A model generated the notes under the pieces. It made no database searches and was not told the DNA's origin. It saw only the letters and a program-made list of their open reading frames with translations. The position numbers and the translations under genes are program-made. From Escherichia phage vB_EcoM_Goslar, in the sequence record NC_048170.1: a stretch of 64,000 bases of DNA. One strand, given 5' to 3'. Positions within the stretch are counted from its first letter, which is position 1; the number at the start of each line of letters is the position of its first letter. Below, piece after piece: positions 1,007 to 48,200 of this stretch.

Positions 1007-3160
1007 TTATTCTGCGGTTTCTTGCTTCGGTAAATAACTTGCTGCAATGTCTTGGGCTAACAATGTATTGTTTTTATTCGAGATGAAAATACCGTAACTT
1101 TCCATTAACGCGTAATACGAACGAACGAGCGTAGAGATCAATCGACGAATATCCATACCTTGAATAAAGATATCAGGAAGCCCGGAGGCTTCGATCACCG
1201 GTAATGGTATCGTTAAGTTGCTTATCGTTTTCTTATCGTTACGTACAATCCAATCACGGAAACGTTGTTGTAACCCTTTATCCTCCCAGGAATCAATCCA
1301 ATCGTTAAGAAGCGTTTTGTTCTTCGTCGCCAACGGCACACGAACCCCAACATAGGGCGGTTCCTGGCAATGGCCGTACGATTGAGCAAACACCTCTTCC
1401 CACATATCGTAAGACTGTTTCGTTACCGCAACATGTGGCTTCACTTTAACACGTGTTAAGAAATCGGGATCACCTCGTTTCATGGACTCAACGATTTCGT
1501 TTTCTAACGAGATAATATCATCAAGAACCAATCGAATGCTGATCTTCTCGTTACGTAACAGCTTATCCATGATACCACACATCATGCGTTCAACACGTTT
1601 GACGATCATTTTTGGTGCTGACGCGTCACGCATAACCGGACCTTTCAATTCCAGCTTCGGTGGGTTGATAGGAACCCCCTCACGCATGGTCATGTAACCG
1701 TAATAGTTTTTACCCATCGAGGTTAACGACAGAATCAAGAACATATATTCGTTCTTCATTTCCATCACGTACATATGCTCTTTCGCTACACCGATATTAC
1801 CAGAACACATCGCCATCAGATGAACCGTAATCTGCGTAACCAGATAGATAAGCGTATTTGCTAAGCGCGTCGAAACTGGATTGATCTCCATATTTCCAAA
1901 TCGCCACTGCACCCACTCCTGGCAGGTAAACACCGTCGAGTCGGTATCAGACAACACACCCACTTCACGGATTGCTGATGGGAAAGCATAAACGCCAGCC
2001 GGTTGGTTCTCGGTACGCCAGAATGCCATAATCAAATCTGCGTAGCTTTGAATACGCTGTAGCATTAATTTTGTCGTCGCCGCAGTAAGACGATAACCAA
2101 GTTCATTTCCTTTTTCTAGCGCTACGTAAATCGCTTCCCCGTTCAAGAACTCCGTGCATTGTGCTGTAATCCAAGCGACCGTGTTGTTATCCATGGAAGC
2201 AATAATGGCTTTAGCCTCTTCCATCGTTTCAACAGGTTCGGATGCCAGCTCACATAACGAGTCAAGAAAATCTCGAACAAATTCAGGATTAAGCTCACGT
2301 AACGAGTACAGGTTATTGCTGTACATGTAGCAGGCACGTTCCAACGGTGTTAAACCGGTAATTAACTCCCGGATAGTCAGTTCTTTCTCTGGGTCGAAAG
2401 TATATCGATGCAAGCATTTCGATACGTTAGCCCAAACCTCTTCCGGCGTAGGGTAATGTAGTTTGTATTTTACCATTACCTGCTCAATGGCTTTGCGATC
2501 GCTGTTACGAACAATACTTACGATGTTTTCAATTGCGATATCACAATCGTAATAATGGAAATTGCCCGCAAGGAAGCGTTCGTTGTTCGCATTGGCTGAA
2601 CCTGAAGCACAGCGACATGTTGTCGTTAAACTTGGATGCGCGATCGGATTATAAAAAGGGTTAAACTTGGACGCCTGGGTTCCTGACAAACTGTTGTTGT
2701 CTAACTTGGTGTTGGTTTGTCGTTTATCGTGTAACTCAGCTTCGTCTTTACGTCCGTGTGCTTGCGCTATCGACATTTGTTTCTTTTGTTTCTTACGCAA
2801 CTTACCGTTTTCAACCGCGAAGTCGCTTAGCACACTGGAACGTGTTTCACGTGGATAACAGTTAGCCCATACCGGCGTGATAATTAAATTATTTTCTTTA
2901 ATATCATTGAAGTATTGGCTGAACTTGATGACTTCTTTTTCACGATTTCCTTCGGTACGCTGTGTTAATACAAGACAGTCGGGATCAACCATCCCGTATT
3001 TTCCACCGGGACGAACCGTATCAAGGACAAACTGCAACGCTTCCTGCTGTGATATCCCACGCATGCGCATTAAGAACAGGGTATAATCCTGTACCGCTTC
3101 TTTGGTCATATCCAACGTACGACCATATCCGTTTTCATCGTAAAAGAACGGATTTTCCAT
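1007..3160 (-). CDS. large hypothetical protein with DTDS motif (possibly polymerase-related)
   Basis: 717-aa ORF; segment GVLSDTDSTVF resembles family-B polymerase motif C, but other motifs not found in expected order. Confidence 0.45.
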   Translation of the reverse strand: MENPFFYDENGYGRTLDMTKEAVQDYTLFLMRMRGISQQEALQFVLDTVRPGGKYGMVDPDCLVLTQRTEGNREKEVIKFSQYFNDIKENNLIITPVWANCYPRETRSSVLSDFAVENGKLRKKQKKQMSIAQAHGRKDEAELHDKRQTNTKLDNNSLSGTQASKFNPFYNPIAHPSLTTTCRCASGSANANNERFLAGNFHYYDCDIAIENIVSIVRNSDRKAIEQVMVKYKLHYPTPEEVWANVSKCLHRYTFDPEKELTIRELITGLTPLERACYMYSNNLYSLRELNPEFVRDFLDSLCELASEPVETMEEAKAIIASMDNNTVAWITAQCTEFLNGEAIYVALEKGNELGYRLTAATTKLMLQRIQSYADLIMAFWRTENQPAGVYAFPSAIREVGVLSDTDSTVFTCQEWVQWRFGNMEINPVSTRLANTLIYLVTQITVHLMAMCSGNIGVAKEHMYVMEMKNEYMFLILSLTSMGKNYYGYMTMREGVPINPPKLELKGPVMRDASAPKMIVKRVERMMCGIMDKLLRNEKISIRLVLDDIISLENEIVESMKRGDPDFLTRVKVKPHVAVTKQSYDMWEEVFAQSYGHCQEPPYVGVRVPLATKNKTLLNDWIDSWEDKGLQQRFRDWIVRNDKKTISNLTIPLPVIEASGLPDIFIQGMDIRRLISTLVRSYYALMESYGIFISNKNNTLLAQDIAASYLPKQETAE

Positions 3161-7310: not shown

Positions 7311-7511
7311 TTAATAACCATCCAATTTCAATGAAGGATGGTTGACGATATGTGCGTGTTTTGCTGGGTCATATAGCTGATATGGAAAATAGCCATGCCA
7401 TTGACGGCCTTGGCATTTCGTACACAGGAACTGACCAACACCTTGTCGATTCTCGTAAGCGAGTTCGGTACTATCAACATGTCCGCAACGTTCGCAGATA
7501 AACAGCGACAT
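7311..7511 (-). CDS. small zinc-ribbon protein
   Basis: 66 aa with CxxC...CxxC (CERCGH...CTKCQG). Confidence 0.45.
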   Translation of the reverse strand: MSLFICERCGHVDSTELAYENRQGVGQFLCTKCQGRQWHGYFPYQLYDPAKHAHIVNHPSLKLDGY

Positions 7512-7548
7512 AGCGCATCCCCATTCACTTGAACCTTTTGGTTCGGCA

Positions 7549-8529
7549 TTAGAAAAGCAAGAAACCGCTATTCTTCGCTTCCGCTACAGTTTCGTCACCA
7601 ACTTTCGGTGCTTGTTGACGTGCGTTACGATGTTCGATGTAACGTTTCGCTTCGTCAGCGATTTGTTTGATAATACCCCCTAAACGATCGGTACTTAAAA
7701 CAAACGACGTCGCTTCACGAATCGGGCTGCTTTCAGGCACAAAACCATCACAGCTATAAATAGCGCTAACACCCATGACTTTTGTCGCGTCTTTCGGATA
7801 AAGCGTACAGAAAGCAATCGGGCTATCGTTCTCTTTCGTCCATTCGTATCCCATGAACGTATTCAGTTCGGTGATCGTCGGTTCCAAACCGGTAACACGT
7901 GGATGGTTTAAGAAGTTTTCCAGGTCGGCGCTGTCAAGACGACGGTTCTCGCCAGAAAACAGAACACAAAGCTGGCTAATAACAACCTGCACGTCCAGGT
8001 TGACATCCTGCTCCGATTTCCCATTTTCGCCATTCATGTGATAGCTAACAATCACTGGACGTTTCAACCCTTCTGCAGCCGCCATCAGTCCTTTGAAGGT
8101 GCGATCGGCGTTGATCGTCTGGCGCTCATCATCGAACGAGGCAACGATACAACACACCACACGTTCACCGCGTTCCAGCAGGTTAGCAACCAACGCAGGA
8201 CCGGCAACAGAACCTGAACCACCGCTCAAACTAAAGACCACGATATTAAATTTACCTGGCGTATGCTTATTGAGAATACCTGGGATTTGTGAACAGATCA
8301 GTTCAGCGTTCTCATCACGCTTCTTACCAGAACCGTCTAACTCACGACCAGCTGCATCTTTAAAGATGTAAATATGATCGTCGCCCAGTGTGCTATCGCG
8401 TAGGTTAGCGCGGCTGGTATCAACATACGTCATGCTGTGTAATCCTTTCGCGACTTCGCCTTCAAATGCTGAGCCGATTTCGCCACCACAACCACCGACA
8501 GCCCAAATATGTACTTGGTTCTCTTGCAT
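7549..8529 (-). CDS. phuZ: tubulin/FtsZ-like GTPase (PhuZ-like)
   Basis: N-terminal WAVGGCGGEIG and SLSGGSGSVAGP (tubulin signature GGGTGSG-like); RBS AGGAG before ATG at 8529. Confidence 0.7.
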   Translation of the reverse strand: MQENQVHIWAVGGCGGEIGSAFEGEVAKGLHSMTYVDTSRANLRDSTLGDDHIYIFKDAAGRELDGSGKKRDENAELICSQIPGILNKHTPGKFNIVVFSLSGGSGSVAGPALVANLLERGERVVCCIVASFDDERQTINADRTFKGLMAAAEGLKRPVIVSYHMNGENGKSEQDVNLDVQVVISQLCVLFSGENRRLDSADLENFLNHPRVTGLEPTITELNTFMGYEWTKENDSPIAFCTLYPKDATKVMGVSAIYSCDGFVPESSPIREATSFVLSTDRLGGIIKQIADEAKRYIEHRNARQQAPKVGDETVAEAKNSGFLLF

Positions 8530-8593
8530 GTGAACTCCTAATTTAATATGTATTTAACGCACAATGAATCTTTCTTTGCTAAAGGGGTGACCC

Positions 8594-9436
8594 ATGGGTG
8601 CTATTGACTACAGTGTAGATCGTATCTGTCGTACAATACCGGCAGACATCCTACAGTATTGCTATATCGATCGCTACGACTGGCGTAATCGCTATCCTCG
8701 TTCCGTAGAAGACATCATTACCGATTGGGTAATCCGTAAACGGGTTATCGGCGACATCGATATCTACGGGGGACTACAAACCGTTATTCCCCTTGATGAT
8801 GCCGGTGTCACTATCGAAGAAGTCACCATCAACTGTTATGTTTTCCACATTCCGTTGGAAGCCACGCAGGGACGTTATATCACGTCTGCATTATCCATTA
8901 TCTCAGGGAGCGTGAACAACTACGGAATAAACTATAACGGGCAATGGGGCGCTTTCAACCAAACCCAATTTCAACGTCAGCTTTGTGGGTGGAACCCCGC
9001 AAGCAACACGTTACAGCAAGGGATGAACGCGTTCGGTCCCATGAACGTTCTTAGTACAGCCAACGTTGATATCATCGCACCTAACACCATCATGGTGAAC
9101 AACGTCACGCCGGTACAATTTCCCCTGAGCCTACGCTGTTTCCTTGCCCACGATCCGGAACTTACCAACCTCAGCATGGAGGTTTGGAACGACTTCTACA
9201 AACTCTGTTTATACGCCACACAAAGTGACATCTACAACAGAACCGTTATCCGTCTCGATAGAGGTGTTACAGCACAAGGACAAGAAGTCGGTGCATTCAA
9301 GGAATACATCGATCGCTTTGCCGATGCTGAAAACACATATCAGGAATTCCTGAACGAAACGTGGGCTGGCGTTGCTGCCTGGAACGATCCACAAACTAAA
9401 CGTCGCGCCATTCGACTACAAACCGGTTACTTCTGA
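8594..9436 (+). CDS. hypothetical protein
   Basis: 280-aa ORF. Confidence 0.55.
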   Translation: MGAIDYSVDRICRTIPADILQYCYIDRYDWRNRYPRSVEDIITDWVIRKRVIGDIDIYGGLQTVIPLDDAGVTIEEVTINCYVFHIPLEATQGRYITSALSIISGSVNNYGINYNGQWGAFNQTQFQRQLCGWNPASNTLQQGMNAFGPMNVLSTANVDIIAPNTIMVNNVTPVQFPLSLRCFLAHDPELTNLSMEVWNDFYKLCLYATQSDIYNRTVIRLDRGVTAQGQEVGAFKEYIDRFADAENTYQEFLNETWAGVAAWNDPQTKRRAIRLQTGYF

Positions 9437-18512: not shown

Positions 18513-20252
18513 TTATGCGACTTTACTAATAACGACTGCAGTGATACCAAGATGTAGGTCGACGCCATTCTGTACTTTAATCCAGCGGATATACAGGTTA
18601 GCGTTATCCTGTCCCGTACCACCTGGGACGTTATTGTTCCTATTCCATTGCGAGATTTCGAAACGTTTCTGCACGTTAGGACCAACCATGATTTCAAAGT
18701 GAGTCGGTTCTGGTGCTTTCGATTCCGTCTTCTCAAGATAGAGTGGATGTGTCGGGTAGTAAAGTTGGTTCAACCATTCACCCAGATCTGAGTGTTTGTT
18801 CGTCAAGTCAACATACGCGTTACCAGCAACATCGTAAGTAAACAACGCTTTCGTGTTACGACCGTACACATCCGTTGTCGTCGGTGTTGTTTGCGAGCTG
18901 AACGTTACTGTCCAGTAATCACCGGATGTCGCCGAACCTGCTTGCAGTAACGTCATTCGAATAGTCTGCGTATGACGTACGCGTTTGTAAACAGTAGGAT
19001 CGACTTCATCTAACCAGATGTTGTACGCAAATTCCTGAGGTTGTCCGTATTTCTTCGGATTAAACTCAGGGCTGTTCAGCGCCAATTGTACTTTATCGGT
19101 TACGTTGTAGTATCGTTCACGGTCAACGTTGTACAACCAGAACACCAGCTCGTATCCCACCGCATCAGATACCCATTGTGGATAGCAGAACAGTTTAACA
19201 CTGTATGCCCCTTTCGCTTCTTTAGAAACGACGGTATAAGGTACGCTGATGTGTTTCACTGCGCCAGGTAACGCGTAGGATGTGTCCTCATCATCGTCCA
19301 GGTAGTAGTGTAACGCCAGCGGGTGTTTGCTGTTGATAACCTGGGACGTGAAGACGTTAAGGCCATCCAACACAACCTTGTTGCCAGTAACCGGCCAATG
19401 TTTAATGGATCCGTCGCTGTAGGTGACTTCAGCTTGAAGGTCAACGGAATCCAGGTTGACGTTGATCGGCAACTCAAGCAGTTTGGTATCGCTGCTGTTC
19501 AGCCACGTTGATTTCAGTCGTACCCCGTCTTCCAGAATATATTTAATACCCTGGTCTGGTGTGCGTACATAGTCGGTGATACGAACGATCATACGTTTCA
19601 TGGATAGCGGCTGTGGACCATCGCCATAACCTACCACCATCACCTGCTCAAAATCTTCGACGGGCTTAATGCAGTAACCTTCGCGGGGTGCCCAGATAGC
19701 TTTATTCGTTCCGTCTTTGTAAGCGATAAGCTGACACGGAATAAAGTCACTGATCTTATTCCCACTGTTGTCATACATCGCACTGATGATTTCGCCTTTG
19801 GCGCTGATATCAGAACCACGGAACACGGCGATACGTCGAATATCCGAACCATGCAGATGGAAACGGCGATCGATATTCATCGTAGCAGGGATCGTGTTCG
19901 TATTAATCAATACGCGCCATGTATCGTACGACCATGTCGGATCAATACCCTCAAAGGTTGTCGTCCCATCGTCCTGACCATCGAACGGAGCAGAAAGCTG
20001 ACCGATAAGTTTAAGGGTACTTAGTTTAGTGCGATCGTCTACGGCGATAACACGATATACTGCGTTGGTATCCCAGTCTTCAACTTTATCGTCCACGTTG
20101 GGAACGTAAAGTTTCCAGTCTTCTTCAACGCCATTATAGATCTCTTTATACGCATAGGTGGTATAGCGTCTGTCGAGATCCTGAATAGCGAGTTTATCCG
20201 GATGCTGTTGTGCATAAAGCACCGGATTGGTAATCTCTCTTCCCATTATCAC
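18513..20252 (-). CDS. putative virion structural protein
   Basis: 579-aa ORF, 4-nt overlap with upstream 864-aa ORF; between terminase and tail genes. Confidence 0.45.
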   Translation of the reverse strand: MIMGREITNPVLYAQQHPDKLAIQDLDRRYTTYAYKEIYNGVEEDWKLYVPNVDDKVEDWDTNAVYRVIAVDDRTKLSTLKLIGQLSAPFDGQDDGTTTFEGIDPTWSYDTWRVLINTNTIPATMNIDRRFHLHGSDIRRIAVFRGSDISAKGEIISAMYDNSGNKISDFIPCQLIAYKDGTNKAIWAPREGYCIKPVEDFEQVMVVGYGDGPQPLSMKRMIVRITDYVRTPDQGIKYILEDGVRLKSTWLNSSDTKLLELPINVNLDSVDLQAEVTYSDGSIKHWPVTGNKVVLDGLNVFTSQVINSKHPLALHYYLDDDEDTSYALPGAVKHISVPYTVVSKEAKGAYSVKLFCYPQWVSDAVGYELVFWLYNVDRERYYNVTDKVQLALNSPEFNPKKYGQPQEFAYNIWLDEVDPTVYKRVRHTQTIRMTLLQAGSATSGDYWTVTFSSQTTPTTTDVYGRNTKALFTYDVAGNAYVDLTNKHSDLGEWLNQLYYPTHPLYLEKTESKAPEPTHFEIMVGPNVQKRFEISQWNRNNNVPGGTGQDNANLYIRWIKVQNGVDLHLGITAVVISKVA

Positions 20253-22843
20253 TCACCTTTGATTGTGTAAAACTTCGTGAAGTCCACGCGATCTTTCAAG
20301 AACTCACGACTGACACGTTCTAAGAACCGCAGTTGTTTAACCGTAACTTCGAGCGGCGTCCAACTGTCATGTGGATGAATAGAAACCATACGCCAATCGT
20401 AATTACATAACGCAGGATCGTAGTCATAGAACCATTTATACGGCTCCATGAAATCCATCAGTTTAACGTCCTGCATATCAGGATCGGGATCGATAACACC
20501 ATTGATAAGATCGTACGTTACGGCCATCAGCGTTGGACTGATAAGCTGGTATTTGTTTTCAATCGTTACCGGCGTATCGTACTTCACACGAGGGAAATAC
20601 AAGGACATATAGTCTTCAACGCGTTTATCGGTTTCAAGACTTTTGTCGCGTAGATAATACGTGTCTGTGTTCACGAGACCACGGATAGGGGCAATAACGT
20701 GGTAGATCGCATAAGGCACCCCATCGTTGACTTTGATGTCGGCAGGGTATTGCGTGTCCTCAGCTGTAACCACTTCGCTACGATCGTAAATACGTCCACC
20801 AACCACAATACGAACAACATGATCGTCACGAACATTAAACACATCGTCGTAAGAAAGCTGGTTATGCATCGTCCAACCGGTATCGTAAACGGTTTCACCG
20901 GTTAAGTCCGTACGTGGAAAACCAGTACATCTCACGGTAACCGTGTGCGTGTTCCCTTCACCGAAATACCGTTTCGCGTTGATCACGATCGTTGGCCATT
21001 TTACGATATAATCGATATCGCGTACCAAGCTGTAGCTTTTGGTTGCTTGCTCGTCACCTAACCATACTTCGATTTGACCGGGTTCGAAAGGCAGCGGATA
21101 TTCAACATCAATACCCGTCGTAACATCCAACCATACAGTGTGATTACGATGTTGTATCGTGGTCTTATACGCTAAGAAGTAGGTGTCGAACAATACTAAA
21201 CCGGTTTGCTTTCTTCCATCCAGCGACCATTTTATTACCCCGTTCTCTTCCGTTACCACAGAAGCATCGTCGGTAACATCCTTCCAGGTGTTCGCAACAG
21301 GTTGTCCGTTACGAAGGTTTACGCTATAACAGCGGTAACTCGCCCATTCACGGATTGGGACGTCGGCAACACCCATTACGTAATCAAGCGTTCTCCCACC
21401 AACACCCGATCGACCCTCAACATAGGACGTGGTTTCATATTGCGGATAAAAATGTCGGCCCGCCGGATGTTGCGTGATACCCAATAATAGACCGTCACTG
21501 TCGTACTCAAAGAACGTCGCATTTGCACGCAATCCCCATGGTACTTCAGCAGTAGGTGTACCCATATCGTCAGTAACGCGTTGTGGGCTATCTGCAACCA
21601 GTTTTGCCATCGCGTTATACCCGTAAGCGGAGGTCACCATGTCGATCGTGATATTGCTTTCCTTATTACGCATGATGCGCGTATAATCACTGGCTTCAAG
21701 GGTACGTGCAAAGAACTCAGGTATATTAGCGTTCTGTTCTAACATTGCACCGACGATGACGTCGTCTGGAAGTTTATACAATTCGTGGATGCGGTTATGT
21801 TCGAAGGTTAACTGCGTTTTCAGCCCACTATCGCGGACAACCACTTCCAGGGTTAAATCACGAAGCGATTCTGCTCCATCAACCCGTTCAACGAAGTAGC
21901 TGACATAATCAACAGGAATCCCGTAATCACGATGCGTGAGCATGCGGATACTATTTTCCTGGTTGGTGTGGTAATAACGCCCTTTTCCGTTAGGCCCTTT
22001 CACGTAGATATCAACGTCATCACGATACCGGATTTTAGTATCCGCTTCATCTTTCGGCGGATGAATAAGATACTTCACTTTTTTGTCCAGATCGCTGTTG
22101 TATGTTTTAAGATCTTCTACACGGAAACTATAACGATGAACAACTGTGCCATCATAGATGACCTGAATGCTATCGCCGATCTTAAAACTTGACGGTGGGA
22201 TGTCTTCAACCGCTTCACCATTGATGCTACAGTGCGTCCAACCGATCCCGGTTTCTTGGATCTTTTTACGCCAAGCGTATAGCTGACGCTGCCACTGTAG
22301 AACCTGCGTTGAACTGGTTACAATCCCGCCAAGGACATGCACCTCGCGTCCCGTCGGTTTCGTGTATGACGGATAGCCTTCCGCGAAGTCAGCATTGAGA
22401 TAGGTGCGCCAGTAATAATTGCCAACGCCAAGGTCAGCGATATTCGGTTGGTCGAGCACACAGACCAGCATCGTTTCGTTTTCCAGATTACCCGTCCACG
22501 TTAATGTCAACGGGAATTCTTTACCGTCCTCGGTATAGATATTGTAATACGATCCCTTCACTTCACAGAACTTGCTGAGTTCTCGCCACCATAACCGCCC
22601 AGCCCCGACATTAAAATCCTCCCCCATATGTCGTCCAATAACAAACACATGGAACGTATTCGTATCGTCAGGAAGATTGAATGTACGATGCCAAGCCGTA
22701 AAGTTTTTTACTGCGCCGGTCTTTCCGGTAATACGACGCATCTTGATACGATGCTGGTTGTCCATTAATGGACGGCAGTTCACATTCAGCGCAGCATGAT
22801 TTATCAAGTATTGCGCTGTAGGATTAGAAGCGTTCAACACCAC
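20249..22843 (-). CDS. large putative virion structural protein
   Basis: 864-aa ORF in structural region. Confidence 0.45.
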   Translation of the reverse strand: MVLNASNPTAQYLINHAALNVNCRPLMDNQHRIKMRRITGKTGAVKNFTAWHRTFNLPDDTNTFHVFVIGRHMGEDFNVGAGRLWWRELSKFCEVKGSYYNIYTEDGKEFPLTLTWTGNLENETMLVCVLDQPNIADLGVGNYYWRTYLNADFAEGYPSYTKPTGREVHVLGGIVTSSTQVLQWQRQLYAWRKKIQETGIGWTHCSINGEAVEDIPPSSFKIGDSIQVIYDGTVVHRYSFRVEDLKTYNSDLDKKVKYLIHPPKDEADTKIRYRDDVDIYVKGPNGKGRYYHTNQENSIRMLTHRDYGIPVDYVSYFVERVDGAESLRDLTLEVVVRDSGLKTQLTFEHNRIHELYKLPDDVIVGAMLEQNANIPEFFARTLEASDYTRIMRNKESNITIDMVTSAYGYNAMAKLVADSPQRVTDDMGTPTAEVPWGLRANATFFEYDSDGLLLGITQHPAGRHFYPQYETTSYVEGRSGVGGRTLDYVMGVADVPIREWASYRCYSVNLRNGQPVANTWKDVTDDASVVTEENGVIKWSLDGRKQTGLVLFDTYFLAYKTTIQHRNHTVWLDVTTGIDVEYPLPFEPGQIEVWLGDEQATKSYSLVRDIDYIVKWPTIVINAKRYFGEGNTHTVTVRCTGFPRTDLTGETVYDTGWTMHNQLSYDDVFNVRDDHVVRIVVGGRIYDRSEVVTAEDTQYPADIKVNDGVPYAIYHVIAPIRGLVNTDTYYLRDKSLETDKRVEDYMSLYFPRVKYDTPVTIENKYQLISPTLMAVTYDLINGVIDPDPDMQDVKLMDFMEPYKWFYDYDPALCNYDWRMVSIHPHDSWTPLEVTVKQLRFLERVSREFLKDRVDFTKFYTIKGE

Positions 22844-23771
22844 GGCATGCCTCCAGGAGGTATTTCATGTTGGCTTGGAAATCATTGACATCACGCGCCA
22901 TACGACGCTGATCTGCCATGAGACGAGCCAACACGGTATCACGGTAACCACGATCGTGGTCAGCAGCAGAGCATAAAAGAATAAATGTTGGTGGGTGCTC
23001 TAAAGCAATCCCGGCAACTTCTTTACTATAACCCCCAACCCAACTGTAAGCGGTGATTTCAAACAACAACGCCTGGGTTAACGTGTTCAAACGGGGACTG
23101 ATATTACTTTCTTTTAACGCTGTTACAAAAGCTGCCATGTTAGGGATGTAACCCAGGTTTTCGGTTGCGATACCGATGCTCGCAAAATCGTAACGAAGCG
23201 TTGTCTGGATGGTGCGCACCATAGTTAGTCTTTCATTATTTGTAAGGCTATCTTTAAACAAGCAAAGATAATACCATGCTGTTATGATGGCAACATCACG
23301 ACGTTGTTGAAGGTCCAACCCTAAACGCTGTGTGATTTGTCCGCTAATCCAATCACAAAAGACACGCATCGGGATAGGGCCAAGACGTTCAAAAGGGCGT
23401 GTGCCCAAGGATTCCCATCCTACCTGAAGATACGCACGTGATTGAAGAAAGTTATATTCACGTTCGTTAACAACGGTAGTACGCGATCCTGGGCGTGAAG
23501 TGTCTGTTGGGGTGCGTGCGTAAGCGCGTTGGTCGATAACAACGCGCTGTCCGTCCATCACTGTTTTAATGACCAGCGGATGGCCGAAAGAAGGGATATC
23601 GTCCAACGTATTTTTGTTGCCGATGACTTCGAGAACGGGAGTGTTTACGCCACTTTCTTCACCGGGTGCACTTAACAATCCGCCGACGTAAGCAACTTCG
23701 ATAGCGGTTCGGATACGGTCAATGCCTTTTAGTTTTGTTCCAACAGTTGTGTCGTAAGGAGAGATGAACAT
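22824..23771 (-). CDS. hypothetical protein
   Basis: 315-aa ORF; RBS AAGGA. Confidence 0.5.
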   Translation of the reverse strand: MFISPYDTTVGTKLKGIDRIRTAIEVAYVGGLLSAPGEESGVNTPVLEVIGNKNTLDDIPSFGHPLVIKTVMDGQRVVIDQRAYARTPTDTSRPGSRTTVVNEREYNFLQSRAYLQVGWESLGTRPFERLGPIPMRVFCDWISGQITQRLGLDLQQRRDVAIITAWYYLCLFKDSLTNNERLTMVRTIQTTLRYDFASIGIATENLGYIPNMAAFVTALKESNISPRLNTLTQALLFEITAYSWVGGYSKEVAGIALEHPPTFILLCSAADHDRGYRDTVLARLMADQRRMARDVNDFQANMKYLLEACRGVERF

Positions 23772-23914: not shown

Positions 23915-25987
23915 ATGAGGCTTAAGAATAGCACGCCTCGCGCGATTTTTACGGGCTTTAAAGAGGGTCTTACCACGGATCCGGTTACAGCCCCAGAGAT
24001 CACGCCCATTCACCTCCCGTATGTTTTCATTCAGGGTGGTCGTGGTAAAGAGGACACCTTGCTGTTAACAGGGGACGCCCTGTCTACAGTCTACGGTGAA
24101 GATATGCTGAACTACCGCAGTAAGTACGCTTCTCCAGCAACACTGATTGCTCGTCAGGCTGCTTCTACAGGTAGCGCGATCTTCACAAAACGTTTGGTTG
24201 CGCCGGATGCAACGGCAGCACGCATCCGTATCGGTGTTGAAGTGGTCGCCGATAAACTGGTCGTTTACCAGCGTAACGCTGACGGGTCCTTTGTGAAGGA
24301 CACGCTCGGCAACAAAATCCCTGACGGCGATAAAACCGTTGACGGGTTGAAAATGCGTTGGGTTGTTAACCACGACAAAGATGCCGAAACACCTAATGCT
24401 TTCGGTAAAGATGAAGTGGTTCTCGGACAACTGACTGCAACTGGTGGTGCCCAGAGCAACTACTATCCTATTCTGGATGGATTGGTGAGCTGGCGTGGTG
24501 CTGAAGGGGACAACATCGGCATACGTCTGGAAGCACCGACCGCGCTGAGCAGTAACCCTACCCGTACCGATATTATCGAACGTATCGGTGCTTTCCTGTA
24601 CCGCATTCAGTTCGTGGAACGCAAGTCTTCACGTACTGCGCCGACGGTCATTCGTACGATCAGCGGTATGGAACAAGAAACCTTCGCGTTGCAGGAAGGT
24701 GTTATCCAGCCTGATGACGAAACCGATCTGTCCTTCGGTAAAGTGGTCGTTGACGCCTACGAGTATAATGAGACGGGTAATACCCCGATCTTTGCTCCGA
24801 TGGATCAGATGCATCTTTATCAGAAGAACATCGATGACGTCGTCAAGATGCTGTACGAATCTGAACGCAAAGTTAACAACGATCTGTTAACCGACGTTGA
24901 ATTCGTCGAAGGCCAGATGAACATCTTCACCGGTGTTGATTACAACGGCATCCCGTATCAAACCATCGAAGTTCTCGATGCGGATCAGGGCGGTGCTATC
25001 TTCGACGGTACCAGCACCTTCTACGCGATCGATGGTAGTGACGGTGACGTAAACTGGGATACCTTCGATGCGTTAGCGAAGCAGCAGTTCGAATCGTTCG
25101 GCAACATGGGCGAAGATCTGGAAGACATGGCTTTCTATCCGTTCTCCATCGTGTATGACATTGGTTACAAAGTCGACACGAAGAAAGCGATGGCAAACGT
25201 CTTGTCTCTGCGTCCGGATGTCATGATCATTGCGTCAACCCATACCTGGAAGGGTGTGGAACTGAATGTCGATGAAGAAAGCTCCATGGGCGCAATGCTG
25301 CGTAACTACTACCGTCTGCATCCAGAAAGCGTGCTTTACAATACCCCAGCTTGCCGTGCTGCTGTATTCATGCAATACGGTGAAAGCATCGAAGCGCCAA
25401 GCCTGGGTAAAGTTCCGTTGACGCTGGAAGTTGCTAATAAACTCGCAACTTACATGGGTGCTTCGGATGGTGTTATCCGCGGTACTCGCATCGATAACAA
25501 CCCTGGTAACGTTGTCACAACGATGCGTAAAATCAACAAGACGTATCGTAACGCAACGGTCCGCGATCGTGATTGGGAAAACGGCTTGAACTATGTTCAG
25601 ACCTACAACCGTAATTCCAACTTCTTCCCGGCTTGGGGCACGATCTACAATAACGACCGTTCGGTATGGCGTTCGTTGATCAACGTGATCATCGGTTGCG
25701 ATCTGACGCGTGTCTGCTATCGTCTCTGGGCAGAAACCACCGGTACTACAGGAATGGATGAAACGCTGTTCCTGAAACTGATGGGTGAACGCTTCCTGGA
25801 ATACACCACGGGTCGTTACAACGACCACGTGACTGTTAAGGGACGTTTCTACCTGGATAAAGAAGACGGCTATAACGGCTTCAGCTATCACGGCGATATC
25901 AGCCTGATCGGCGATCCAGGCATGACCGTGGGTACGTTTACCATCACCGGGCTGCGTCGTAACACCGAAGCAGCAGAAGCGGCGTAA
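23915..25987 (+). CDS. major virion structural protein, probably tail sheath
   Basis: 690 aa, strong RBS AAGGAGAG, highly biased codon usage, immediately followed by a 296-aa gene; size/synteny argument only. Confidence 0.5.
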   Translation: MRLKNSTPRAIFTGFKEGLTTDPVTAPEITPIHLPYVFIQGGRGKEDTLLLTGDALSTVYGEDMLNYRSKYASPATLIARQAASTGSAIFTKRLVAPDATAARIRIGVEVVADKLVVYQRNADGSFVKDTLGNKIPDGDKTVDGLKMRWVVNHDKDAETPNAFGKDEVVLGQLTATGGAQSNYYPILDGLVSWRGAEGDNIGIRLEAPTALSSNPTRTDIIERIGAFLYRIQFVERKSSRTAPTVIRTISGMEQETFALQEGVIQPDDETDLSFGKVVVDAYEYNETGNTPIFAPMDQMHLYQKNIDDVVKMLYESERKVNNDLLTDVEFVEGQMNIFTGVDYNGIPYQTIEVLDADQGGAIFDGTSTFYAIDGSDGDVNWDTFDALAKQQFESFGNMGEDLEDMAFYPFSIVYDIGYKVDTKKAMANVLSLRPDVMIIASTHTWKGVELNVDEESSMGAMLRNYYRLHPESVLYNTPACRAAVFMQYGESIEAPSLGKVPLTLEVANKLATYMGASDGVIRGTRIDNNPGNVVTTMRKINKTYRNATVRDRDWENGLNYVQTYNRNSNFFPAWGTIYNNDRSVWRSLINVIIGCDLTRVCYRLWAETTGTTGMDETLFLKLMGERFLEYTTGRYNDHVTVKGRFYLDKEDGYNGFSYHGDISLIGDPGMTVGTFTITGLRRNTEAAEAA

Positions 25988-29725: not shown

Positions 29726-30535
29726 TTACCAATGATTAAAGCTGCCCGCTTTAACGACGTCACAGCGCAGATGGTTACGTAACTGATCCAGGAAGACAAC
29801 CGGACTGTCACCAGACAACATAGCCAGCGCGTGTTGGCCACCGGAACGAACAACAAGCTCATCAACCATTGGTGCTGTAATCGGGAGATCATACGCATCC
29901 ATGATTGCCTTGGCTTCCTGTTCTACGTCTTTCTGGAACCCTTCCATCGTCGGAGAGTCATATTTGGTTGCAAACTCGATCCCAGGTAAGTTAACGTAAT
30001 CGTAAGTCATGACACGGGTCATAACACGACGGCGCTCACGTTGCCAGATCTGAGGATCGGTTAACGCGCGAACCGAAAAACATACGTTCACTAGCGGTGT
30101 TTCAAAATCTTTACGTAATGGATCACCGTACGGTCCGCAAGGAATAACATCCCCCATCACCATCACGACAGGACGACCACGACGATCACGTCCAGCTTCC
30201 TCTAACCAAATCTTAGAAAAGCAATGGCTTACCTTCGTTTCTTCGATTCGTAATGCCCGCTGCAAAAAGCTGGTTGCATCCTGACCGATCTCTGGTTTAG
30301 GGTGACCGTATTCACCTTTCAACGAACGATTGCGTGCGTTTGTTTGCAATAAACTGTTTTCCAGGAACAGCGGTTTCGAACGCTCAAGTTCGTAATATTC
30401 TTCGGTATTGTTAAAACAGTTAAACCCGCCTATAACACAGGTGTAGGCACCGTCAGCATTAGGACGGATAATACCTTTCTTATTCACACCAAGATAACTG
30501 GTGCAAACAAGATTACTAATTGGTGGTTGCATCAT
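29726..30535 (-). CDS. hypothetical protein
   Basis: 269-aa ORF. Confidence 0.5.
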   Translation of the reverse strand: MMQPPISNLVCTSYLGVNKKGIIRPNADGAYTCVIGGFNCFNNTEEYYELERSKPLFLENSLLQTNARNRSLKGEYGHPKPEIGQDATSFLQRALRIEETKVSHCFSKIWLEEAGRDRRGRPVVMVMGDVIPCGPYGDPLRKDFETPLVNVCFSVRALTDPQIWQRERRRVMTRVMTYDYVNLPGIEFATKYDSPTMEGFQKDVEQEAKAIMDAYDLPITAPMVDELVVRSGGQHALAMLSGDSPVVFLDQLRNHLRCDVVKAGSFNHW

Positions 30536-38446: not shown

Positions 38447-38930
38447 CCTTGTCTTCGCCTCAGGTCGCTACGCTGAGACCGCCTGCATGGATACGTACAT
38501 CACAGGCTGCTTGCACTTTCATGCAAGAGGAGACTATATCAAACCGTCAGCTTCACTTTCTCGATCATATCGAGAATGCGGCGCTGAAGTATTCTTCAGC
38601 AGCACCTGTTACGGTAACCTACACTTCGAAGACGCTTGTCCTCTACAGGGTGGTAAATCCCTTAGTCGTTGAACCTGCGTTGTTTCACATTCTTACAACC
38701 AAGAATGCCGTATTGCTACGCAATAACCAGGCTGCTGATTGCCCATTGTCTCGCACCTTAGCACCGCTTACGCGGCTTTTCTTTCAGCCTAAGCCTCTTA
38801 CGGAGGTAGTGCATCTCAACTGTTGTTTCTGCCTTTCGGCACCTCATGGGTCGTTGAGCTTTAGGGGTTCCCAGCAATTCGTAGGTTTTTCAAGCACTCC
38901 CTTTCAGGAATACCGGACCTTATAGAAAAG
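38447..38930 (-). ncRNA. group I intron catalytic core (3' part of intron)
   Basis: minus strand: AATTGCTGGGAA (38879-38868), AATCAGCAGCC (38740-38730), GTTCAACGACTAAG (38674-38661), GATATAGTCTCC (38540-38529) in P-Q-R-S order; no ORF of 60 codons or more on the coding strand. Confidence 0.6.
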
Positions 38931-40403
38931 CTATTTATTCAAGTATCTGAAATCCCACTTATCCTTACGTCTATTATCGCACTTGATGTCAGGATGTCTA
39001 ACACGGTGTTGAATCGTAGTCGCTGGTAATTGACTCACATTCACAGCCGATTTCGCGCCAAGAACAATTGTTTTTGTGTTGTCCGGACGAGTAACTTCTA
39101 CCGCTCGATGATGTTTACGTAACACATCACGCCAATACTCACGCCGTTCCGGTTCCGCGTATTCGAGCATATAACCGTTGGTATCGACCAGACCGTAACT
39201 CTCGTTTAAACGAGAGGTGGCGGCTGGTCTACTAATACCAATCGCTTTAGCCGCGTCAACCACGGTTTTATACGGGGTCTCATTACCGTCTCTATCTACA
39301 ACCACAATAAAATCTGGACGCGAATCGAGCAGCTGCTGTCTTCGTTCAAGGGCTTGTTGATGAAGCACCTTATTAACATGTTCGAACCCGTAACCTTCTG
39401 GACCGTGCCACCCTGGATTGTTATTCGCTCGATAAAGTATCGTCGCAGATTTCACTCCCGTCTGACGTGACGCCTCGTTCGCACTATGGACAACCGTGGT
39501 AGTGCCATCAGGGTGATATATCCGTATCTGGTTCATTATACCAGAACCAACGAAATTACCATCAGCTGATTTAATGTCCGGCCAGGGTTGTGGATCATCT
39601 TTGAATTTAACCACCCAACGGTTGTTAAACAATTTGACTTTCCGAGCATGTTTACCTAATGTCGTGTCTGTAACACCGGCTACAGCAGAGGCTTGCGCGA
39701 TACTAGGATATTCCGTGACCACATCTTCTTCAGTATCCCAAAGGAGAACCGGTTTGTTATCATCACGTAGTCCGGTCTCAACCGCATGTAGAATATTTCT
39801 AAGGCGGGTTGCCCATTCTAGATTGTCTAACGCGTAATTCCACTTATCGCCATCAAGATGGTTAACGTCCATCCTATCGACATCAGCCGGATAATCTTTC
39901 CACGCTAAGAGCAGACAGCGATGAAGCGATCTTCTCTGGGATTTAAATCGGCAATCATGCTGCATACTAACGAAAACATAGCTATCGTCAACACACCAGT
40001 GAGGACACTGACGGCCAGTAATACGGTTGATGATTCTACCTTTCCGGTTGGCCAAATAACGAGTGTGTCCGGGAATGACACGATAACCTGGGTACTTAGC
40101 GATTTCGTAAGCAGGCTCGAACCGATAGGATAAATTATCAACATCCCAGTTAGATTCGTCACCATCAACAAACATCGCTTTGACGTATTTCTGTGTTTCA
40201 ATATCAACCAGGATGTTTTTGTGTGCGATACAAATCAATGCTGGGATATTGAATTCGCGACCGGCTATGATAACCGTGTCGCCATTTCTCGGTACCTCGA
40301 CGTGGGTATCGCGATACCGTAAGTTTCCATAGCCGTCTATTTCAATCCAGCTTAAAAACGGAATGGGTATAAACTCTTTTTCAGATACTCGCCATTTAAA
40401 CAT
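38931..40403 (-). CDS. HNH homing endonuclease (intron-encoded)
   Basis: HNH motif VNHLDGDKWNYALDNLEWATRLRN; C-terminal repeated DNA-binding-like modules (SIAQASAVAGVTDTTLGKHARK, TVVDAAKAIGISRPAATSRL). Confidence 0.8.
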   Translation of the reverse strand: MFKWRVSEKEFIPIPFLSWIEIDGYGNLRYRDTHVEVPRNGDTVIIAGREFNIPALICIAHKNILVDIETQKYVKAMFVDGDESNWDVDNLSYRFEPAYEIAKYPGYRVIPGHTRYLANRKGRIINRITGRQCPHWCVDDSYVFVSMQHDCRFKSQRRSLHRCLLLAWKDYPADVDRMDVNHLDGDKWNYALDNLEWATRLRNILHAVETGLRDDNKPVLLWDTEEDVVTEYPSIAQASAVAGVTDTTLGKHARKVKLFNNRWVVKFKDDPQPWPDIKSADGNFVGSGIMNQIRIYHPDGTTTVVHSANEASRQTGVKSATILYRANNNPGWHGPEGYGFEHVNKVLHQQALERRQQLLDSRPDFIVVVDRDGNETPYKTVVDAAKAIGISRPAATSRLNESYGLVDTNGYMLEYAEPERREYWRDVLRKHHRAVEVTRPDNTKTIVLGAKSAVNVSQLPATTIQHRVRHPDIKCDNRRKDKWDFRYLNK

Positions 40404-40410
40404 TTCAATA

Positions 40411-40440
40411 CCTATTAATTACCACTTTCATATTAATAGG
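40411..40440 (-). promoter_or_regulatory. AT-rich 9-bp hairpin just upstream of HNH start codon
   Basis: minus strand cctattaat-atgaaagtggta-attaatagg ending 8 nt before ATG. Confidence 0.35.
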
Positions 40441-40490
40441 TTTAAAAGTTAAATTTGCCAGAAAACTGGCATTTTGTTAGCCTTTCCTTG

Positions 40491-41957: not shown

Positions 41958-42202
41958 GGAGACACTCCTCTTTACCACCACCGGCTGCGGCGGTATCATC
42001 TGAACACACGAGAGACGTAATGGGTGATGGCGTCACCCATCGCTTCCTTGCTTGAGGCGAGGAAGTTATTAGGTTACGTACCTGCGTGATAAAATCAAGC
42101 AGGCGATGTGTGAAGTTACGCTTCAACATTATCAATGCCGAAGGTAAACTTCGTGCATCACGTTCCAACGTAACATGGGAACGTATCGAACTGGAGGTAT
42201 AC

Positions 42203-45200
42203 ATGGTAGATAAAACCCGTGTTGAGGGTGATGATAATTGGGATAACTGGGATGAAGACTTCTCCCTGGATCTCGATTTTAACGAACCCAAAGACGATCG
42301 TAAACCGATAACACGCTTTGCGATAGGAGCGGTTAAAGGTGCTGCTGAGGATCTTACTTCCTACGAAAGAATGAAGGAGATCGCCAGAAACGCATTGCCT
42401 AAGGGCTACAGCGACGGTATGGATCTTATCGATTCCGCCGTCGGATCCACGAAGGAACTATACAATGAAGCCGTTCGTGACGTTCTTCCTAAGGTCCAAA
42501 GCTCAAAACGGTTAGCAGCACAACTGACCAAGAAATACCGTGCGAGCATGCCCGATTTCTCGAAGAAAATTCTTGAGCAATGGGAGCGAGAAGCCAAGGA
42601 AGAAGACGAACGTAAACAAGCTGAAGAAGCCCTTCGTCAACGCATGGCGAGCGCGGGGGACGATGAGATCGCCCGCAAGGTTGCCGAGGCATTAGGCGAA
42701 TCAGCAAACCAAAGCGCGGATCAGTTTGCTGAACAGCAAGCGAAAGAAAGTATCCGTGACGATATCGCTGACAAACGGTACGCTGTAACCAACAAACAAA
42801 TGAGTGCGATGCAAGAAGGCGTCGCCAAGATGGTTGGTTTCAACAATGAATTCGCTGCACGCTACATGCGTAAAAGCCTGGAACTGAAATATCGTTCCTT
42901 AGCGATTCAACGTGCAAGTTTCGATCAGCATAAAAAGTTAGCCGAAGTCTATATCGGTCTATTACAAAACATCCAGAAGAATACGGCTTTACCTGATGCA
43001 GCTAAAGCGAAGATGTCGGAAGAATTCCGTCGTAGTGCATACCAACGTTTCTTTGGTAATGCGTTAGATGCGATGGGTTCTTTCGAGAACCGTTTCTTTG
43101 CCGATGTTAAGAAGAACCTCGCCACCAACGCATTAGGTGCTTTAAAAGGCGTCGTGTCTGGCGCAAACGATGCGTTATACGGTTTAAACGAAGCACGTGA
43201 CTCGATGTCCATGATGGACGGGATGGGGTCAGAAGGCGATATTAAGGAAATGCAAGGAAGGATGTTGGGTCAGTTCATTGGCTCAACTGTCGCGCCGTGG
43301 ATGGCTAATAAAGGCAGGATGGCGTTACGCGATTTAGCAAAACGTCACCCCAATGCTAAATTCGCAGGTGCGTTAAAAGCCGTGGATCAAGGTGGTGAGG
43401 CTGCCGCTTACACGACGCGTAATCTCGGTAAACTGCTCCAGGAAGATATTCGTAAGAACGAATTCAATCTTAGCGATCCATTTTACAAGCAATTGTTACG
43501 CGGCGCAGGGCGTTGGGCGTTCAACATGGACAGCGGACGTAACTTCCGTGTGATGAACGACACCGCTGAAACACTGGCAGAGCAAACATCTTTCGACGGT
43601 TTAACCTACCGCAGCATCAACGAGGTTATTCCGGGCTTTCTTGCACGCATTCTGAAAAGCAGTGAGGGTATCCGCACCGGAAACAGCGATCCTGACTACG
43701 AGGTCTATGACGGCATCAGCGGGCAATTCGTGGCTCAGCGCACGCGCGAACAAAGCGTCAACGACACGCTGTTTAACAAACGTTCGTTTGGTTATTACGC
43801 AAGCCGTTTCAATGAGGTTATCTCGGTCATCGATCCCGATAAACAATTATCGGAAAAAGCCAGAAAGGCGCTGGCCAAGCAGTTGGCACGAGATAGCGAC
43901 GCAAACATTGCATTCGACCCAGCTCGTTTTACGGATGAAAGCAACTTCGATCGTAGTATCGACCGTGACGCTATTAAGGAACTTTCCACATACTTTCGAG
44001 ACCGTTACGGTATTCGTGATGATGTCAACGATAAGGGCGAACGTCATCAGGTCATTGGAAACCGCGGGCAATATTACACGGAACGTAACCGAGCTGACCT
44101 TCGCTACGGAAATCTGAAATCGTTACAACCGGATATTCAGCGTAACCTTAACCTACTGAAACGTACTGGTGACGTCCAATATCTGGAACGTATCGGTATC
44201 GTAACGAGAAATAGCGACGGAAGCTACTCAGTTAATCACGATCGGTATTTCTCTGAAATCGATCGATACATCGACCGACCGGAGTACGCTGACCGCGGCG
44301 ATGTTAATACGCGATTAACCGCTCAGGAAACAAGAGCGCTGGCGTTGGGTTATCGTGACGCAAAACCATCAACTGGTGACGTCCAAAATGCGGGTCTGCC
44401 GAACATCGATCGTAAGGCTGCTGGAACAGTAACCGTTGATGAAAACATCGGCTACGATAAATGGTGGAACGACGCTGGCGTTATCACTACATCGCTTGAA
44501 GAACAGAATCGAGCATGGCAAGAACTCTATCTCGAAGCGTTATCTGAAGCATCCGAACAACGTGTCGAAATGCTTGCGTTGCTGAAAGCCATTTCTGAGA
44601 AAGACTGGTCTAATAACGTTTCGCTGGATGGTGAAGACGTACCTGAAGGTGCAGCGCCCATTTCATTTATCGATCGCGCCAAACAAAAACTCGGCGGACG
44701 CAACCTCTTTAAAGGTGGCCGTAATCTCCTCTGGAAAGGAATTAAAAATACCGCACGATTGGGTGTTAAAGGCGCACGTTGGGGTGCAGAACGTACATTA
44801 GGTAGTTTGGTAAATTCCGGCCGACGTATTATCAATTTCAACCGTTTTGTGTTCGGCGCATTATCCAAGGTCGATCAGGTTCCGTTTGACATTTACGTTA
44901 AAGGGGAATCCCAACCACGCATACTGGCTGCCAAACTTCGTCAGGGGTTATACTTCGACGAGGCGACAGGAAAAGCCGTAAAACGGATGAAGGATATCAA
45001 AGGCCCACTCGTTGATGCGGATGGAAACGTCGTAATCAGCAACGAGGATATCGAGAAAGGGCTGGTCACTCGCGCTGGTCGTGCCTTTGAGAATTCAGGA
45101 CTTAAGGCGTGGGCGCATGAAGGTCTTAATGGAATAACGACGGTATTAAGTCTGCCACGGATGTTAAAACGCGGTGCGGTTGAGATCTACAAACAGCTTG

Positions 45201-48200
45201 ACAGAACACCCGACGTTTACGTCAAGGGAGAATCAACGCCTCGTCTATTATCCATGGTGTTAGCAGCGGGTGGGTATTTCCGTCGCTCTGATGGGCAAGT
45301 CATCAAAAATCTTGAAGACATCGATGGTGATGTTGTTGATGCACAAGGTAACGTCGTACTTACGCTTGCCGACATGCAGAAAGGACTTGTCGATAAATAC
45401 GGTAAAGCGATTCGTCGCTTAAAAGAAAAGCTCATCAACTTCGGTGTGAAAGCTTTCACGTTACCGTTAACCTTACTACGCAAGACAAAGGACATCCTTA
45501 AAGCCCTTCCAGGTAAAACCGTTAACGGTCTACGACGGATGGGATTAAATTTCCAATCACCTGACGCATTACTGGTGGGAACAACGTCGAGCATGGTAGA
45601 TCGGCTCGATGCGATTTACCAGCTTCTTGACCAGCGTATGCCGGGTGGTGATAAGGATTACCGCGATTGGGATGGCGATGGTGTTCGAGAAGGATCGTTG
45701 GAAGACCTGAAACGTAAACGTGCAGCCAAGGAAAACGGTGAGGATGACGCAGGCAAAGATTCCAATAAAGGGGAAGAAAAGGAGAAGAAACGAGGATTAC
45801 TCGGAAGCCTTTTCGATATGCTCGGCGATACCGCATTAGGTAAACGCCTCATGGCGAGTCCGCTTGGAAAAATTCTAGGTGGTCTTGGGGCGGTGTTAAG
45901 CGGCGGTGCATCGTTAACCGGGTTGTTGGGCAAAGGTCTCATTAGAGGAACCGGTGCACTGGTCAAGGGAGGACTAAGTGCGGCAGGATGGTTAGGACGT
46001 GGTGCGTTAATGGCGGGCGGGGCCGCATTGAACGCCGTTGGTGGGTTATCGGGATTAGGTGCATTCCTCATCTCACCTGTTGGGCTTGCTATCGCTGGCG
46101 GCGCATTGGCTGCTTATGCTGGATGGAAGATCTATCAGCATTTCGCCGAGAAGCCTGACCCGATGCAGAAGCTCCGTCTTATCGCATACGGTGTAAAAGG
46201 TGACGATAAAGACTTCAATAAGAAGCTGCTTGCGACAGAAACATACCTCACCGACCATGTGGTTATGACCGGGGATACCATCGGATTCGATCCGAAAGCC
46301 GATTCTGAAAAGATTCTCGAAATCTGGGAATTGTCCCTGGAAGATTCCGACCGAATGAACGAATGGAAACGTTGGTATCTACATCGTTTTATTCCTGTTT
46401 TCGCTCGTGCGTACAAACTCTGGAAAGAGCATATGCCGGACGAGAAGAAATACATGGAAATGGATAAATATCCAAACGGTGAGAACAAAGTGAAATGGTC
46501 GGAAGCGTTTATCTGGCCTTCCGATAGTCCTGATGGTCCGTATTACGTCGAAGCTAACCCGTTGGGTTCTTCTGGTGCGACGCGTTATATTGCTGGTCAA
46601 GACGTCAAAACCTTGATGCTGAAACAACTCGAAGCCATCAAGAAAGAGTACCAGAATCAGATTAAGCAATACTCTCATGATGAGGCTATTGCTGATTGGT
46701 CACGGATGTCTGACACACAACGTAAATCCGTTGCGCCTAACGCATTACGCGGTCAGAAAGCGTCGTTACGTTTTAACGATAAACGTTACAACAGTGCTGG
46801 CGCTAAAGGACGACAGAAACTGGATGCAACCGCGGTTATTGAAAGCGTAGACCGCCGCGGCAGGAAATGGGTTGCCGGTGGATACATCGATGAACTCACC
46901 AGTCTCCGTGTTCGCGCGTACGGTATCAAGGTTCCGTTGTTAAGCCAGATAAAAGTGCTGATGGAACTTGAAGACGCTGTAGAACCTGGCGTTGTCGCTG
47001 AAGGTAAAGGTGTTAAATACGGTGGCGATCTTGTCGCGCTCTACAAGAAATTCGCGACGAAGTTCGGAAGAGACGTTAACAGCAAGCATGATCAGGATAT
47101 CTGGTTTGCTTGGATGAATAACCGTTTCCTGCCCGTCTTTTTAACCTATTACCAACAAGTTAGCGAAATGGGCGGTCAAGGACTTCTGTCCGACGTGGTA
47201 CAGAACCTGAAAGACAGCCAGCGTTGGGAAATCGGTGAAGCACTTGTCGCAACGCAATACCGTGATGAGAAAGGTGCATTACAGCCTGTATGGTCGTGGA
47301 ACAGTTGTGGTTTCTCCGGTACTGAAGCTAACACCACCAGCAGTTCAACAAAGAGCCAACTCGATCTGTTAAAAGAATATGCGGATAAAGAGAAGGTTCG
47401 TGAGAAGAACGCGGAAGCATCGCAAGAGGATACCGATAAATTATCGAAGATCCAAGAGCTGATGATGAAGCAGGCTGGGTACGAGAAGAAAGACGGTGTC
47501 TGGCAGAAGAAATCTCGCATTACTGGTGGGATGAGTAACTCCGAAGCGAATTACAACCCCAATGGGAATAAGGTCGGTGCAAGCAGCTTTACTGCTTCGG
47601 CTACTTCCAATGCGGGATTGGGATCAACCGGCGATCTTACTGGATTGCCTAACATGGGCTTACAGAAACCGGCAACGGGACCGGGTCCTGAAGCTGGACG
47701 TCGTGCGCTTGTTAAATCCGCTGTAAAACGCGGTATTACCGATCCAATGGAAATGGCGATGTTCCTTGCGAACATCGAACATGAATCGGGGAACTACACT
47801 CACGTACGTGAGGGGAACTATAAGACACCTGAGCGTCTTAAACAGGTCTTCCCTTACAAATTCCGTGATGTGCAGGATGCCGCACAGACGATCAGCATGG
47901 GGCCGGAAGCGGTATTCGAACGTGTGTATGGTAATCGTAAAGACCTAGGAAACACACAGAAAGGAGACGGGGCGAAGTATTTAGGACGTGGATTCATTCA
48001 GGTTACCGGTAAAGCTAACTACGCTCGTCTGTCTAAGACCTTGAATAAGGATCTTGTCAGCGATCCGACATACCTGGAAACGCCGGAAGGTGCAGCGGAA
48101 GGTAGTGTTGCATGGTGGCTCAACCGAGGTAACGTATTACGCGATCCCGCAAAACGGGGTGACGTGCGCCAAGTTCGTTATCTGGTTAATGGTGGCTATA

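Follow-up and report, generated by a model that had tools for sequence, protein, structure and literature searches.

The PhuZ tubulin of Escherichia phage vB_EcoM_Goslar, a divergent member of the tubulin/FtsZ superfamily, in its genomic context

The closest described system is the PhuZ protein of Escherichia phage vB_EcoM_Goslar itself, which is already known from the genome of 2019, from the in vivo study of Birkholz et al. 2022 and from the cryo-EM entries PDB 9PM9/9PMK of December 2025. It has been reported that GFP-PhuZ forms a vortex in Goslar infection, and a dominant-negative mutant of the protein, D202A, has been published (PMC9891218). This mutant needs a much lower expression level to assemble and gives no vortex during infection; the share of cells with rotating nuclei falls from 92-97% to 29%, while the position of the nucleus is unaltered (PMC9891218). 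PhuZ is an accessory protein, missing from about one third of chimalliviruses (PMC10299810), and therefore indicates a nucleus-forming phage without defining one; the defining marker of these phages is chimallin, not PhuZ. According to a review of 2025 the factors behind spindle versus vortex are unknown (PMC12908238).

The ORF at 7549..8529 belongs to a 64-kb stretch of phage DNA (the window), features of which are collected in Table 1. The original prediction, made from the raw sequence, had described a 326-aa ORF with two motifs, GGCGGEIG and SGGSGS, and had given no strand; both motifs are present at residues 12-19 and 102-107, and the strand is minus. Across its six frames the window has 40 segments that are free of stops and at least 200 aa long, and the product of this ORF is the only one of them with a motif resembling the tubulin signature ([SAG]GG[ST]G[STA]). 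Exact-sequence look-up reveals identity at 326 of 326 residues with Goslar_00201 (QBO63993.1 / YP_009820885.1), recorded as 'tubulin PhuZ [Escherichia phage vB_EcoM_Goslar]' and also under the title 'hypothetical protein Goslar_00201'; contigs with the exact protein are up to 237,307 bp long. The ORF is therefore Goslar phuZ. Residues 2-326 of the product are 100% identical to PDB chain 9pm9_C (also 9pmk; E 1.8e-220), and the 9PM9 entry, released on 2025-12-24, bears the title 'PhuZ Tubulin from phage Goslar (locally refined monomer)'. A full-text literature search for 9PM9 and 9PMK returned no paper on the structures, the one relevant use being the benchmark of a flexibility-prediction preprint. 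Numbering of the protein varies between sources, being gp201 in GenBank and Birkholz et al. 2022 (PMC9891218) and gp234 in the 2026 Goslar virion-structure preprint.

Table 1. Features of the phuZ locus and of other parts of the window, with window coordinates
Feature	Position	Strand	Remark
phuZ ORF	7549..8529	minus	ATG start, 326 aa + stop (ORF listing of the window)
C-terminal tail of PhuZ, residues 300-326, ending GFLLF	7552..7632	minus	low pLDDT in monomer model
D199-S-A-D202 acidic pair, T7-loop / helix-8 region	7924..7935	minus	D199 and D202 invariant in 24/24
SGGSGS, residues 102-107, tubulin signature (T4-loop)	8209..8226	minus	within Pfam Tubulin match, residues 9-151
GGCGGEIG, residues 12-19, first glycine-rich nucleotide-binding loop (T1-loop equivalent)	8473..8496	minus	aligns with 'GGAGFRIG' of phiKZ gp039
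Shine-Dalgarno AGGAG	8535..8539	minus	5 nt upstream of phuZ ATG, read from sequence
Divergent DNA polymerase	1007..3160
Terminase large subunit, 743 aa	16231..18462	minus
Virion protein	18513..20252
Virion protein, DUF7193	20249..22843
phiKZ gp28-like vertex protein	22824..23771
Tail sheath	23915..25987
Head protease	29726..30535
RNAP-like ORF, 1448 aa	33917..38263	minus	phiKZ gp178 counterpart
Exon 2 of gp180-like gene (predicted)	38446-38272	minus	starts FDGDTVSV...
Predicted intron, 2044 nt	40490..38447	minus	junction against intron-less Eowyn homologue
Group I intron core, full length	38510..38938	minus	Rfam RF00028, 67.7 bits against gathering score 50
HNH/NUMOD1 endonuclease ORF, 490 aa	38931..40403	minus	adjoins ribozyme core
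RNAP-like ORF, 516 aa	40449..41999	minus	phiKZ gp180 counterpart
Exon 1 of gp180-like gene (predicted)	41999-40491	minus	ends ...LGGD
2260-aa homologue of phiKZ gp181 tail-associated lysin	42086..48868	plus
RNAP-like ORF, 224 aa	55450..56124	minus	counterpart of phiKZ region 154.3-154.9 kb

We put at roughly 97% the probability that the ORF is phuZ of Goslar, or of an isolate with an identical PhuZ, and that it encodes a divergent tubulin/FtsZ-superfamily GTPase forming nucleus-rotating vortex filaments. Identity, fold, conserved residues and genomic context come from the present analysis; filaments, vortex, rotation and the D202A phenotype are taken from published experiments on the same protein. 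No observation speaks against the assignment.

Membership of the tubulin/FtsZ superfamily, and of its PhuZ type, had been proposed from the two loops and is borne out by the profile search, by PDB matches and by the predicted fold. The profile search suggested as a check gave a match to PHROG 4733 'tubulin PhuZ' over residues 1-323 (profile positions 1-321 of 323, E 1.9e-68), and the structure prediction suggested alongside it gave an AlphaFold2 model with the tubulin/FtsZ fold; a missing family match or a missing tubulin fold had been named as grounds for giving up the assignment, and both the match and the fold were found. Pfam Tubulin (PF00091) aligns with residues 9-151 at E 8.3e-7, with a score of 29.9 bits that lies below the curated gathering cut-off of 33. 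The protein falls short of this cut-off because its sequence has diverged and not because a Tubulin domain is absent, and its relatives at 29-61% identity bear precomputed PF00091 and PF22334 matches. Sequence matches in the PDB include phiKZ gp039 (3zbp) at E 5e-29 and PhuZ-201 (3r4v, 3rb8 and 3j5v) at E about 4e-15, and in a phage collection that evidently does not include the Goslar record megablast of the gene gives no match and tblastn finds only relatives whose identity is 31-34% or lower.

The AlphaFold2 model has a mean pLDDT of 86.5 and a pTM of 0.86, with the last ~20 residues poorly defined (pLDDT 47-59). It shows the two-domain architecture of the superfamily, which comprises a Rossmann-like GTPase domain, a core helix and an activation domain. 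Foldseek search of the PDB with this model places 9pm9 at the top (TM 0.91, 100% identity), followed by phiKZ TubZ (3zbq, TM 0.81) and PhuZ-201 (3r4v, 0.80), while further down are c-st TubZ, CetZ, many FtsZ proteins and eukaryotic tubulin, all at probability 1.00; in total 1118 PDB chains are matched at E <= 0.001. In these alignments the identity of Goslar PhuZ to the other characterised PhuZ proteins is only 22-27%.

Alignment of 24 sequences, for which 23 homologues were collected from 97% down to 29% identity, reveals sixteen invariant columns: D37, T38, S39, N42, G66, G68, R71, G103, G104, V108, N140, Y163, N166, D199, D202 and G262. Conservation in the first glycine-rich loop is 90% or higher at G12, G13 and G15. 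In the tubulin signature the invariant G103 and G104 are accompanied by S105, G106 and S107, each conserved at 90% or more. The acidic catalytic residues that the superfamily carries in T7/H8 would be D199 and D202 in Goslar PhuZ. In tubulin/FtsZ polymers such an acidic pair reaches into the next subunit's nucleotide pocket, where it activates hydrolysis of GTP and so couples assembly to turnover. At the end of the tail G322 and the hydrophobic C-terminus are conserved at 90% or above in the alignment. In PhuZ-201 the C-terminal tail reportedly takes part in longitudinal subunit contacts (Kraemer 2012, Zehr 2014), and by analogy the Goslar tail should dock on the neighbouring subunit. The roles given here to single residues in GTP binding and hydrolysis, and to the tail, are putative and follow homology.

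Taken together with the published work, these features give the following picture of how Goslar PhuZ acts. A monomer would bind GTP through the glycine-rich loops at residues 12-19 and 102-107, and monomers polymerise head to tail into filaments in which D199 and D202 of one subunit probably complete the GTPase site of the next, making the filaments dynamic. In infected cells, GTP-dependent dynamic filaments round the phage nucleus have been published for this exact protein (PMC9891218). They form a vortex-like array about the chimallin-bounded nucleus, push on the cell membrane and rotate the nucleus, and in Goslar they do not bring it to midcell. Rotation of the nucleus is thought to aid the spreading of docking capsids across the nuclear surface.

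The original prediction had gone further and assumed a spindle that centres the phage nucleus. This part stands for the Pseudomonas phages and does not stand for Goslar, where the vortex rotates the nucleus without positioning it at midcell (PMC9891218, PMC12908238). Were Goslar PhuZ to build a bipolar spindle that serves chiefly to hold the nucleus at midcell, in the manner of 201phi2-1, phiKZ and phiPA3, this would fit the homology of Goslar PhuZ to the PhuZ proteins of those phages and the conservation of the catalytic and polymerisation motifs. However, the Goslar nucleus lies anywhere along the cell axis and D202A leaves its position unchanged (PMC9891218, PMC12908238), and published live-cell and cryo-ET data contradict such a spindle, which makes it very improbable for this phage.

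With the rotating vortex as the preferred reading, one may ask what sets it apart from a bipolar spindle. It is conceivable, though we would count it as rather unlikely, that the Goslar-clade PhuZ proteins, meaning the present one and its relatives at 56-61% identity, bear clade-specific features that decide between the two. Compared with the consensus 'D...D.GLV' that the alignment gives for the family, the Goslar tail (DETVAEAKNSGFLLF) is poorer in acidic residues. A less acidic tail that ends in GF/LL-hydrophobic instead of this consensus may be a candidate determinant of the vortex, a weak lead from one alignment observation.

The original prediction also reasoned from PhuZ to a nucleus-forming jumbo phage and expected a chimallin homologue elsewhere in the genome. 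The inference to a nucleus-forming phage holds, as the chimallin gene is present on contigs that carry the identical phuZ, and the homologue was found: a 631-aa chimallin (PF25677) lies ~8 kb from phuZ and starts at window coordinate -409, about 410 nt beyond the left edge of the window. The exact PhuZ protein occurs on 19 contigs. Among these, contig L006 matches window positions 1-14312 at 100% identity and supplies the position of the chimallin start, and other contigs show 96.4-98.3% identity across about 18.5 kb. Chimallin is found on all five of the contigs that reach far enough, with a partial copy on a sixth, and the order on related contigs is the divergent DNA polymerase, a 364-aa gene and then chimallin. 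Compared with the chimallin chain in PDB 7sqt/7squ/7sqv, the copy on contig L001 reaches 1377 bits and is near-identical; we take these PDB entries to be the ones that Laughlin et al. 2022 deposited for Goslar chimallin. A reading of the raw sequence alone had thus recognised a tubulin that scores below the Pfam threshold and rightly predicted a chimallin gene, and this has value for calibration. As a discovery Goslar PhuZ matters little, since gene, product, cellular role and structure are all published. It also marks the window as Goslar DNA, so that the literature on this phage bears on all other observations in the window.

The 90%-identity cluster of Goslar PhuZ has 111 members, several of which bear the annotation 'hypothetical protein' under E. 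coli O157, Shigella sonnei, Shigella flexneri or Salmonella enterica and sit on contigs of 238-248 kb. These enterobacterial-labelled contigs look like Goslar-like jumbo phage genomes in bacterial isolate assemblies, which agrees with PMC12768965. Megablast of phuZ against complete E. coli RefSeq genomes gave no match.

Two regions near phuZ deserve mention in their own right. Directly downstream of phuZ a 66-aa ORF (7311-7511, minus strand) looks like a zinc ribbon because of its two CxxC pairs (C6/C9 and C30/C33); it belongs to no PHROG family, and the gene calls of every related contig include it. Farther on, the minus-strand ORFs 5621-6250 and 5868-6845 lie in different frames and overlap by ~380 nt. 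So long an overlap probably arises only from choosing the first possible start codon, since gene calls on related contigs begin the downstream ORF later and give it 97-98 aa.

The surroundings of phuZ also bear on a quite different role, that of a TubZ-type (type III) DNA-partition motor that works with a TubR adaptor and a tubC centromere to segregate a replicon, be it plasmid-like or a prophage. Foldseek matches to c-st phage TubZ and Bacillus thuringiensis TubZ (TM 0.56-0.65), and the deposition of the phiKZ homologue as 'TubZ' (3zbp/3zbq), speak for such a motor. However, the genome context is that of a lytic chimallivirus, and in structure the nearest proteins belong to PhuZ and not to TubZ. 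A search of 6800-9600 for iterons or a centromere-like array of repeats gave just short two-copy chance matches, and the small ORFs neighbouring phuZ match no TubR-like or other named family; the intergenic region upstream of phuZ is only 64 nt. Because iterons and an adaptor gene are lacking there, we reject the partition motor, to which we give next to no chance. A role as an FtsZ mimic that mainly interferes with host cell division, instead of forming a phage cytoskeleton, would fit the fold that the protein shares with FtsZ (TM about 0.55-0.6), but it is scarcely credible in view of the 12-16% identity to FtsZ, the full-length PhuZ-family profile match and the published localisation of PhuZ round the phage nucleus and not at the division site (PMC9891218).

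The remainder of the window is typical of a chimallivirus in its gene content, which besides the virion genes of Table 1 includes a UvsX-like recombinase and an RNase H-like protein; from ~30 to 49 kb the gene order is that of phiKZ gp175-gp181. The profile match of the terminase large subunit covers only residues ~9-212, the other ~530 residues being without a PHROGs match at the threshold used. The gp181 homologue has a lysozyme/endolysin-like domain at residues ~1875-2100, and the positive GC and AT skew at 42-48 kb is explained by this one long plus-strand gene.

Three RNAP-like ORFs of 516, 1448 and 224 aa map to phiKZ gp180, gp178 and the phiKZ region at 154.3-154.9 kb, respectively, and are therefore assigned to the virion RNAP. 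In the last of these regions relatives annotate a beta/beta'-like virion-associated protein; the phiKZ gene concerned is presumably gp149. The three ORFs and a 235-aa ORF have no sequence match to any solved structure, the solved non-virion RNAP being included in this comparison for the first three, and of the non-virion RNAP, which the original prediction had expected elsewhere in the genome, no subunit was detectable within the 64-kb window. Five virion RNAP subunits have been detected in Goslar virions (2026 Goslar virion-structure preprint). Chimalliviruses also encode an nvRNAP (PMC10299810), which for Goslar is a statement of the literature only.

Analysis of the gp180-like gene suggests that it is interrupted by a group I intron, whose core is present in full length directly after an endonuclease ORF (Table 1). 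The 516-aa ORF ends ~55 positions short of its PHROG profile, and 'RFDGDTVSVNVLYSMEA...' is encoded by an open frame of 66 codons that lies immediately upstream of the 1448-aa gene. In Klebsiella phage Eowyn the homologue lacks the intron: a single gene of 540 aa, directly adjoining the gp178 homologue of that phage, encodes '...LAGLGADFDGDTGSV...'. The tblastn query consisted of the end of the 516-aa ORF, the 66-codon frame and seven filler residues at the N-terminus, and the matches begin at residue 13 or 42, none of them on the filler. The splice junction was derived from the actual window sequence: exon 1 would end in ...GGC GGT GAT at 40491, its last base being U, and exon 2 would begin with TTC GAC GGT GAT at 38446, the preceding base being G. 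The putative junction-spanning peptide of the spliced product is LGGDFDGDTVSV. So placed, the predicted 2044-nt intron obeys the splice-site rules of group I and would split the Mg-binding catalytic DFDGD motif of a beta'-like subunit; splicing itself we infer from the sequence. We also considered an intron within an intergenic spacer or at the start of the 1448-aa gene (its 5' end) and ruled out both, as the frame upstream of the ATG of this gene is exon 2 of the preceding one.

The same arrangement is seen in phiKZ, where gp180 is split at the same site. The annotated phiKZ gp180 ends in 'LGAD*', and the gap between it and gp178, which bears no annotation, encodes 'FDGDTVSFNAVYSEEA...'. As in Goslar, the 5' splice site is preceded by U and the 3' splice site by G. 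According to PMC11512511, which cites Ceyssens 2014, introns have been reported in phiKZ gp55 and gp180. One long-read study saw no splicing in phiKZ (PMC10914365), and a different intron endonuclease, in the phiPA3 gp178 homologue, acts as a competition weapon (PMC11620839). We found no mention of the Goslar intron in the literature, including the 2026 Goslar virion-structure preprint. It would be a previously unmentioned example of the intron type already reported for phiKZ gp180.

Comparison with known systems places the locus as follows. TubZ (c-st and B. thuringiensis pBtoxis), CetZ, FtsZ and tubulin have the GTPase fold and the signature loops in common with Goslar PhuZ; in contrast, their identity to it is 11-17%, their cellular role is another one, and Goslar is without a TubR/tubC partner. 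The PhuZ of 201phi2-1 (gp59; 3R4V, 3RB8, 3J5V) has the same fold (TM 0.80) and, like the Goslar protein, a tail that extends past the last helix. However, it is only ~22% identical by Foldseek, or 27% according to PMC9891218, and the sequence match begins only at residue 65. With the deposited Goslar PhuZ (PDB 9PM9, 9PMK) the sequence is identical and the neighbours are the same on the contigs that carry the gene, so that no difference is detectable. The phiKZ protein gp039 (PDB 3ZBP/3ZBQ), also from a chimallivirus, has the same fold (TM 0.77-0.81), aligns with residues 5-292 of Goslar PhuZ (E 5e-29) and has the glycine loops and the D-x-x-D element in common with it. However, the two proteins are ~26-27% identical, and the phiKZ bipolar spindle both centres and rotates the nucleus whereas the Goslar vortex only rotates it (PMC9891218).
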